NCBI RefSeq assembly: GCF_003790525.1
Contig: NZ_CP033633.1
Direction: 5' to 3' (one strand)
Length of the DNA: 64,000 nt
Source: Escherichia coli
GTDB taxonomy: Bacteria > Pseudomonadota > Gammaproteobacteria > Enterobacterales > Enterobacteriaceae
Shown: in pieces, positions 19,525-19,692 of the stretch
Layout: the number at the start of each line of letters is the position of its first letter
Numbering within the stretch: position 1 is the stretch's first letter
Made by a program: the position numbers and the translations under genes
The notes under the pieces: generated by a model
Told to the model about the DNA's origin: nothing
Database searches by the model: none
The model's input: only the letters and a program-made list of their open reading frames with translations

Positions 19525-19600
19525 AGGAAAACCCCCATAATCTTCTCATCGAACTTGGCGGAACGTTAGAAGATTATGGGGGCCTCACAGAATACGGGAT
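19525..19600 (-). ncRNA. predicted antisense (Inc/CopA-type) RNA complementary to the rep leader stem-loop
   Basis: Plus strand has a 15-bp perfect stem CCCCCATAATCTTCT/AGAAGATTATGGGGG (19532-19582) with loop containing TTGGCG; a CGCC partner lies near the rep start (about 19665); exact RNA ends not determinable. Confidence 0.45.
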
Positions 19601-19608
19601 AAGTATAT

Positions 19609-19692
19609 ATGAAACCGTGTCAGAGATTCAACCCTTCGCAGTGTATTAACGCACGGCATTCTGTTTCCGCCATAAGCGACAGCTTGTGGCGG
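19609..19692 (+). CDS. rep leader peptide (RepY/Tap-like, 27 aa) translationally coupled to rep
   Basis: ATG at 19609, [29 protein letters not shown], stop overlaps the GTG start of the rep gene. Confidence 0.4.

Follow-up and report, generated by a model that had tools for sequence, protein, structure and literature searches.

An IncK2/Z-type replicon in Escherichia coli with a predicted antisense RNA and pseudoknot control region

The rep gene that begins at position 19686 of a 64,000-nt stretch of Escherichia coli DNA (contig NZ_CP033633.1; the whole stretch is called the window below) is preceded by a strong stem-loop and a short leader open reading frame, and this arrangement raises the question of which plasmid family supplied the control of replication and how that control would work. 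An earlier, sequence-only reading of the locus had proposed antisense RNA and pseudoknot control of the IncI-complex type, to be checked by folding the leader, by aligning it to IncI repY-repZ and IncFII tap-repA, and by replicon typing. We consider, with a probability of about 0.93, that the region controls copy number and incompatibility in an I-complex replicon of the IncK2/Z type, through a mechanism that we take by homology from its relatives. Copy-number control regions of this kind are well known, ordinary and already described.

Stem-loop I and its predicted antisense RNA

The features upstream of and around the leader peptide start are the following.
19532-19582, plus strand: stem-loop I (structure I) of the rep mRNA leader, target of the antisense RNA, from folding, the structure line of Rfam PK-repZ and covariation
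19524-19595, minus strand: predicted antisense RNA gene (RNAI or Inc RNA), about 72 nt, ends inferred; complement of stem-loop I followed by UUUUCCUU
19602-19631, minus strand: promoter-like site for the antisense RNA, with -35 TTGAAT at 19631-19626, an 18-nt spacer and -10 TATACT at 19607-19602, from a consensus scan
19347-19375, plus strand: candidate rep mRNA promoter, with -35 TTTTCA, a 17-nt spacer and -10 TATATT, from a consensus scan

The 15-bp perfect stem with a TTGGCG loop that had been noted at 19532-19582 was confirmed by the sequence and by folding. The arms CCCCCAUAAUCUUCU (19532-19546) and AGAAGAUUAUGGGGG (19568-19582) pair at 15 of 15 positions, and folding of 19500-19720 recovered stem-loop I, together with a second hairpin over the rep start (hairpin III, below), in both the MFE and the centroid structures. 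A short upper stem tops the lower one, and the apical UUGGCG (19555-19560) lies inside the 21-nt apical region 19547-19567 and can be closed as a hexaloop by C19554-G19561, stacked on C19550-G19565 and G19551-C19564. We aligned eight I-complex leaders, namely the window, IncZ, IncK2 (pMbl536), IncB pIP72, two of the IncIgamma/K1 type, IncK1 pCT and IncI1 R64. UUGGCGG was kept in all eight. Across the I-complex variants, seven pairs of stem-loop I were altered on both sides, and 95% of the alignment cells were paired, far more than in slid controls; in these comparative data the pairing of stem-loop I is thus proven by covariation.

The region also matched a known family of RNA structures. Rfam PK-repZ (RF01087) aligned to 19524-19673 over its full length (model positions 1-150 of 150) with 177.4 bits, compared with a gathering score of 44 (E = 2.8e-40). 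With such a value over the full model, the match of the region is not one of chance. In a permissive Rfam scan, PK-repBA reached 35.9 bits, below 45, and CopA (RF00042) matched the minus strand at 19523-19610 with 41.1 bits, below its gathering score of 60. A chance hairpin was considered and rejected: the fold of the 221-nt leader (19500-19720) had a z-score of -4.3, which was equalled in none of 200 shuffles, and the PK-repZ E-value points the same way.

On the minus strand, the fold has an energy of -30.2 kcal/mol and consists of a 19-bp stem with a U tail (UUUU), given by UUUUCCUU downstream. The promoter-like site on the same strand overlaps the start region of the leader peptide gene. 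Both of its hexamers lie in conserved blocks of the eight leaders, and the -10 TATACT is invariant with the sole exception of R64, which has a 1-nt deletion beside the hexamer. From this promoter-like site, the stem and the U tail, the antisense RNA is predicted to measure about 72 nt, which agrees with the published length of about 70 nt for Inc RNA or RNAI (PMC3817090, PMC7491321). At the level of sequence only, a predicted antisense gene with its own promoter-like site and terminator is found opposite stem-loop I.

Because the hairpin is long, perfect and GC-clamped, stem-loop 19532-19582 might be taken for a mere intrinsic terminator of a plus-strand upstream transcript, with no antisense RNA at all. 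On the plus strand, however, the stem is followed by CCUCACAG, which contains no U-run, and the terminator scan made no call there, whereas the minus strand has UUUUCCUU after the stem and the conserved promoter-like site before it. The downstream repY-rep pair would moreover require read-through of such a terminator, and the region has its match in a known family of cis-regulatory elements. We regard the terminator as barely conceivable. The sequence-only reading had itself named a terminator lacking a minus-strand antisense promoter as the finding that would tell against it; since the promoter-like site and UUUU lie on the minus strand and the plus strand has no U-run, that objection falls away and the antisense reading stands.

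For the rep mRNA, 19347-19375 is a reasonable candidate promoter. Its TTTTCA and TATATT are invariant in IncZ, IncK2, IncB, IncK1 and IncI1 R64, with diverged flanks in R64. The surrounding DNA upstream of the leader is rich in Dam sites: six GATC sites occur within 278 bp (19125-19402), compared with about three per kb in the whole window. Two of them lie within the arms of an inverted repeat (19185-19211) and one, at 19379, is just 3' of the -10 of the candidate promoter. This GATC-rich region is 92-97% conserved in IncB/K/Z plasmids and is not conserved in R64 or R100.

Leader peptide, pseudoknot partner and hairpin III

Between stem-loop I and rep lie three further elements.
19609-19698, plus strand: leader open reading frame repY (also repB or RLP), 29 codons, ATG at 19609 and TGA at 19696-19698, from the list of open reading frames
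19665-19672, plus strand: UUCCGCCA, distal pseudoknot partner, complement of the loop sequence UGGCGGAA (19556-19563)
19667-19692, plus strand: structure III (hairpin III), 11 bp, CCGCCAUAAGC / GACA / GCUUGUGGCGG, from the MFE and centroid folds

The leader open reading frame had been described as having 27 codons and ending over the rep start. The overlap was correct, as the repY stop sits 13 nt inside rep in the sequence GTGGCGGCCCTGA, but the length was not: the frame has 29 sense codons. A 29-codon frame occupies the identical position in all eight aligned leaders (the window and seven references), and the GTG...CTGA overlap with a 29-aa RepY is common to IncZ, K2, B, K1 and I1. The RepY of the window is 100% identical to that of IncZ (pO111-CRL-115) and differs from that of IncK2 at two residues. 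It did not match the Tap model TIGR03475, against which R100 Tap scored 60.6 bits.

The loop of stem-loop I and the distal partner are complementary over 8 nt, UGGCGGAA with UUCCGCCA, with a duplex energy of -14.2 kcal/mol. When the 40 nt preceding the rep start were shuffled 20000 times, a complement of this length appeared in only 53 of the shuffled sequences. The CGCC (19668-19671) stands in CCGCCA (19667-19672), which precedes the rep GTG (19686) by 15-19 nt; the earlier placement of CGCC at about 20 nt was roughly right, the measured distance being 15-18 nt. A role for GGCG/CGCC pairing has been described (PMC4705826), and across seven distinct sequences of the alignment the six core pairs UGGCGG/CCGCCA do not vary.

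Hairpin III is predicted to sequester the rep start codon (GTG) together with the CGCC partner. Ten of its 11 pairs are invariant, and CCGCCAUAAGC-GACA-GCUUGUGGC is unchanged in the eight-leader alignment. Since both the pseudoknot and hairpin III are conserved without covariation, the comparative data show strict conservation only and give no independent proof of either pairing. Folded alone, hairpin III has an energy of -20.5 kcal/mol, compared with -18.9 kcal/mol for that of R64. The one variable pair is 19668/19691, which is a C-G pair in IncK2/Z-type leaders and a C.A mismatch in IncI1, IncB and IncK1, so that the masking hairpin of the IncK2/Z type would be slightly more stable. The difference, GGCGG in the IncK2/Z type and GGCAG in IncI1, IncB and IncK1, is a base of the second rep codon and lies near the 5' junction with the IncFII-like segment described in the next section.

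Replicon type and mosaic structure

The initiator and origin that follow the leader are these.
19686-20558, plus strand: rep, a 290-aa IncFII-type RepA with a GTG start, from TIGR03474, Pfam IncFII_repA and comparison with R100
20559-20934, no strand assigned: IncFII-like CIS/origin segment, part of the 85% nucleotide match to R100, with a DnaA box

The Rep protein scored 563 bits against the NCBIfam equivalog TIGR03474 (incFII_RepA; cut-off 447), a model that R64 RepZ did not match. It is 86% identical in amino acid sequence to R100 RepA1 over 284 aa and aligns to R64 RepZ with 24% identity over 101 aa only. It is therefore not the RepZ-type initiator of 343 aa that marks IncI1/B/O and IncIgamma/K1 replicons. 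The GTG start is placed at the same position by PGAP in plasmid pE16-3. Downstream of rep, the DnaA box TTATCCACA is found at 20734-20742.

BLAST comparison with R64 and R100 and a four-way alignment showed that 19052-19692 is I-complex control sequence. In its first part (19052-19531), identity to plasmids of the IncZ, K2, B and K1 types is 92-97%, and the match of the leader to R64, at 79% identity, starts from 19417. This control sequence is free of IncFII-like sequence except for a 76% match of R100 to the stem-loop (19518-19584). From about 19725 to 20934 the window is IncFII-like, with about 85% nucleotide identity to R100 over the rep body, the CIS and the origin, and from 20935 it tracks R64 (95-96%) and not R100. 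The 3' switch from R100-like to R64-like sequence falls at GCACCTCCCAC (20924-20934), a motif common to the window, R64 and R100 in the four-way alignment. On the 5' side, the junction falls within 19693-19725, where the leader stop overlaps the rep start, and the form of this overlap is common to both parents (GTGGCGGCCCTGA in the window and GTGACTGA in R100). Sequence comparison thus identifies the replicon as a mosaic of I-complex control and an IncFII-type initiator and origin, which is the known IncK2/Z chimera. Chimeric IncZ replicons with I-type control and FII-type Rep and origin were reportedly described by Praszkier et al. in 1991 and by Kato and Mizobuchi in 1994. Of the family assignment made by the sequence-only reading, the I-complex control was right, whereas the initiator downstream is an IncFII-type RepA and not RepZ; a chimera of the two also fits the naming of both IncI and IncFII in that reading.

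Searches of PLSDB placed the replicon among known plasmids. With 19060-20700 as megablast query, pE16-3 and its relatives from chicken E. coli were 99.6% identical and many others 95-97.5% identical. With the leader only, pHB42-5 was 100% identical over 19417-19700, and about nine records were at least 99% identical over the leader. These nearest plasmids (99.6-100% identical) are typed IncK2/Z, MOBP and MPF_I, and pE16-3 and pHB42-5 have IncK2/Z as their sole typed replicon. Among I-complex plasmids, IncK2/Z is recognised as a clade of its own in repA (PMC6361801, PMC10286972), within which nucleotide identity exceeds 95% (PMC6361801). Over 19060-20700, the plasmids that are typed IncK2/Z are 95.8-99.6% identical to the window, which also has an I-complex RNAI-repY leader and is accordingly assigned to IncK2/Z. 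The region thereby assigns the window to a conjugative I-complex plasmid of the IncK2/Z group and fixes the parts of the replicon for annotation. Plasmids of this group occur commonly in E. coli of human and poultry-associated origin and often carry resistance genes.

Among the known systems, IncZ (pIE545; pO26-CRL125 and pO111-CRL115) has the same architecture of RNAI, repY and IncFII-type rep and origin; the IncZ replicon has been described as RNAI, repY and repZ (PMC3817090). The leader (19417-19760) is 97.4% identical to that of pO111-CRL-115, which is also typed IncK2/Z, with hairpin III and the distal CCGCCA identical. In contrast, identity over the 1641-nt replicon query (19060-20700) is 95.8%, and six differences fall in the span of RNAI and stem-loop I, five of them at 19547-19567 (the apical and interior-loop part). 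IncK2 (pMbl536 and the chicken-associated blaCMY-2 plasmids) shares the chimeric architecture, 97.5% identity over 19060-20700 and the IncK2/Z repA clade (PMC6361801), and differs at 14 positions of RNAI and stem-loop I, besides the two RepY residues.

IncI1 ColIb-P9 and R64 provide the template for the mechanism, with the UUGGCG loop, a 29-codon repY, a GUG-masking hairpin III, CGCC and an antisense Inc RNA some 70 nt long (PMC4705826). The R64 leader is similar to that of the window, which matches PK-repZ over its full length, but R64 has an initiator unrelated in sequence (a RepZ of 343 aa, compared with the 290-aa RepA), another origin and a hairpin III with one C-G pair fewer. IncB pMU720 and pIP72 have the same control, under the names RNAI, SLI and repB, with 89% identity in the leader and 92.5% over 19052-19531; in contrast, the initiator of pIP72 is of the RepZ type (343 aa), and its RNAI shows 14 differences. 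IncFII R1 and R100 resemble the window in RepA (86% in amino acids), in the origin (about 85% in nucleotides, with the DnaA box) and in the leader stop over the GTG. They differ in having CopB and a leader peptide of the Tap type (24 aa), in a CopA that the window matches only below the Rfam threshold, and in control sequence, which upstream of 19693 in the window is non-IncFII save for the 76% stem-loop match.

The IncFII-type Rep and origin could suggest that control, too, is of the R1/R100 kind, in which a CopA-like RNA blocks a leader peptide by simple coupling and the CGCC complementarity is dispensable. The alignment of R100 stem-loop II to 19518-19584, the minus-strand CopA match (41 bits, below threshold) and the pseudoknot pairs without covariation would be in keeping with this. 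However, CopA remained at 41 bits against a gathering score of 60, while PK-repZ reached 177 against 44, the leader peptide is RepY and not Tap, and the I-complex sequence of 19052-19692 includes hairpin III and CCGCCA, invariant where ColIb-P9 needs them. Nor does the window hold a CopB gene: tblastn of R100 CopB over the whole window gave a best E of 3.9, and in the 99.6%-identical pE16-3 PGAP shows no gene between the NusG-family gene and repA, so that the earlier remark that no copB-like gene is evident upstream holds. We therefore consider R1/R100-type control improbable. The proposal of IncI-complex-type control is supported instead by the PK-repZ and CopA scores and by the identity of RepY to that of IncZ, and the alignments suggested with it gave the same picture (leader 79% identical to R64, RepY and not Tap, Rep 86% identical to R100 RepA1).

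The NusG-family gene just mentioned (18344-19051, minus strand; Pfam NusG, E = 3.5e-05; PGAP coordinates of the homolog 18344-18985) is divergent from the replicon. Its position is kept in IncB, K and Z plasmids, and its neighbour is annotated as traC in pE16-3 and as hypothetical in others.

Another reading is that the module is an inactive remnant and that the element replicates from a different replicon. The window is indeed part of a larger element, and a segment of about 230 bp flanking the origin is repeated at 46437-46663. However, the open reading frames are full length, the start/stop overlap is kept and the DnaA box is present, and the window shows no further rep homology to R100 or R64. 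With all parts intact and near-identical plasmids (pE16-3 and pHB42-5) carrying IncK2/Z as the single typed replicon, we judge a remnant very improbable.

Proposed mechanism, RNAI variant and surroundings of the replicon

In ColIb-P9 and its relatives, the rep GUG and a weak SD are masked by a stable hairpin, and translation and termination of the leader peptide uncover a 5'-CGCC-3' just upstream of the rep SD. A GGCG/CGCC pseudoknot then competes with Inc RNA, which kisses the same loop against pseudoknot formation and subsequently, in a stable complex, stops translation of the leader peptide (PMC4705826). All the elements that a model of the ColIb-P9 type needs are present in the window, intact and at the expected spacing.

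By this model, the rep mRNA, probably starting from 19347-19375, would carry stem-loop I, repY (19609-19698) and rep (GTG 19686), with hairpin III (19667-19692) locking the rep start codon and CCGCCA. A ribosome that translates repY and reaches its stop at 19696-19698 would melt hairpin III, and the freed UUCCGCCA (19665-19672) would pair with the loop UGGCGGAA of stem-loop I (19556-19563) to form the pseudoknot. As the pseudoknot would hold the weak GUG initiation site open, rep could be translated by coupling or re-initiation. The constitutive RNAI or Inc RNA of about 72 nt (minus strand, from about 19595 to 19524) would kiss the same loop through its CGCC and block the pseudoknot, and a more stable complex of RNAI and target would then block repY translation. 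Because the antisense RNA would act on both the pseudoknot and repY translation, synthesis of Rep would drop as the copy number rises. The initiator and origin under this control (about 19725-20934) would be of the IncFII type and not of the RepZ type. Beyond the folds and the sequence itself, we infer the steps from their homology to those of ColIb-P9 and pMU720, for which they were demonstrated individually; the ends of RNAI, the promoter activity and the dependence on the pseudoknot are taken from the same homology. To our knowledge, the pseudoknot is not required in IncFII R1; since the Rep of the window is of the IncFII type, dependence of its translation on the pseudoknot in the chimera is an assumption. 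To the mechanism itself, the region adds nothing new.

The RNAI of the window is a minor variant, which differs from that of IncZ (6 positions) and IncK2 (14 positions) mostly in the interior loop and upper stem, at 19546-19549 and 19566-19568. In this family, a single nucleotide of the top or interior loop can be enough to determine compatibility (PMC10724649), so that the differences could alter the incompatibility behaviour of the variant, a point of modest weight. In-silico typing groups the variant with IncK2/Z. On the basis of these sequence differences it is conceivable, though rather doubtful, that the lineage forms an incompatibility subgroup of its own, not yet recognised, whose members could be maintained alongside classical IncZ and IncK2 plasmids.

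A possible accessory to this control is encoded 3.7 kb downstream.
24224-24817, minus strand: ProQ/FinO-domain protein, 197 aa, Pfam ProQ/FINO, E = 1.1e-12

FopA of pCol1B9 binds Inc RNA and speeds the pairing of Inc with repZ mRNA (PMC7491321). By analogy with FopA, the ProQ/FinO-domain protein may serve as a chaperone of RNAI. FopA/YafB was looked for in R64 between 4000 and 16000, where only resistance and IS genes were present.

Downstream of the origin, a segment of about 230 bp (21173-21399) has matches of 92-95% in both IncI1 R64 and IncFII R100. Its second copy in the window (46437-46663) is inverted and 97% identical; next to it lie a small gene pair of toxin-antitoxin-like character (45811-46370) and a gene for a serine recombinase (46871-47461). 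The duplicated segment may mark a hotspot of recombination or insertion. Directly 3' of the replicon, 21505-22040 encodes an antitoxin of the Phd/YefM type (83 aa) and a toxin of the ParE/RelE type (95 aa), and this pair is followed by an AT-rich, low-complexity stretch with small open reading frames (22050-23950).

Two further groups of repeats were found in the window. A sequence of at least about 600 nt occurs three times in direct orientation (28364-28969, 37253-37858 and 42493-43096; 99-100% identical), at spacings of 8.9 and 5.2 kb, and is probably a repeated IS or other mobile element. Two 1319-nt copies (38449-39767 and 58898-60216) are 100% identical, inverted and 19.1 kb apart. This pair looks like one IS present twice and may, by flanking the 19-kb segment, form a composite transposon. 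Each of the two copies contains an Rfam ALIL pseudoknot, a frameshift signal of the IS3 family, at 39312-39428 on the minus strand and at 59237-59353 on the plus strand.
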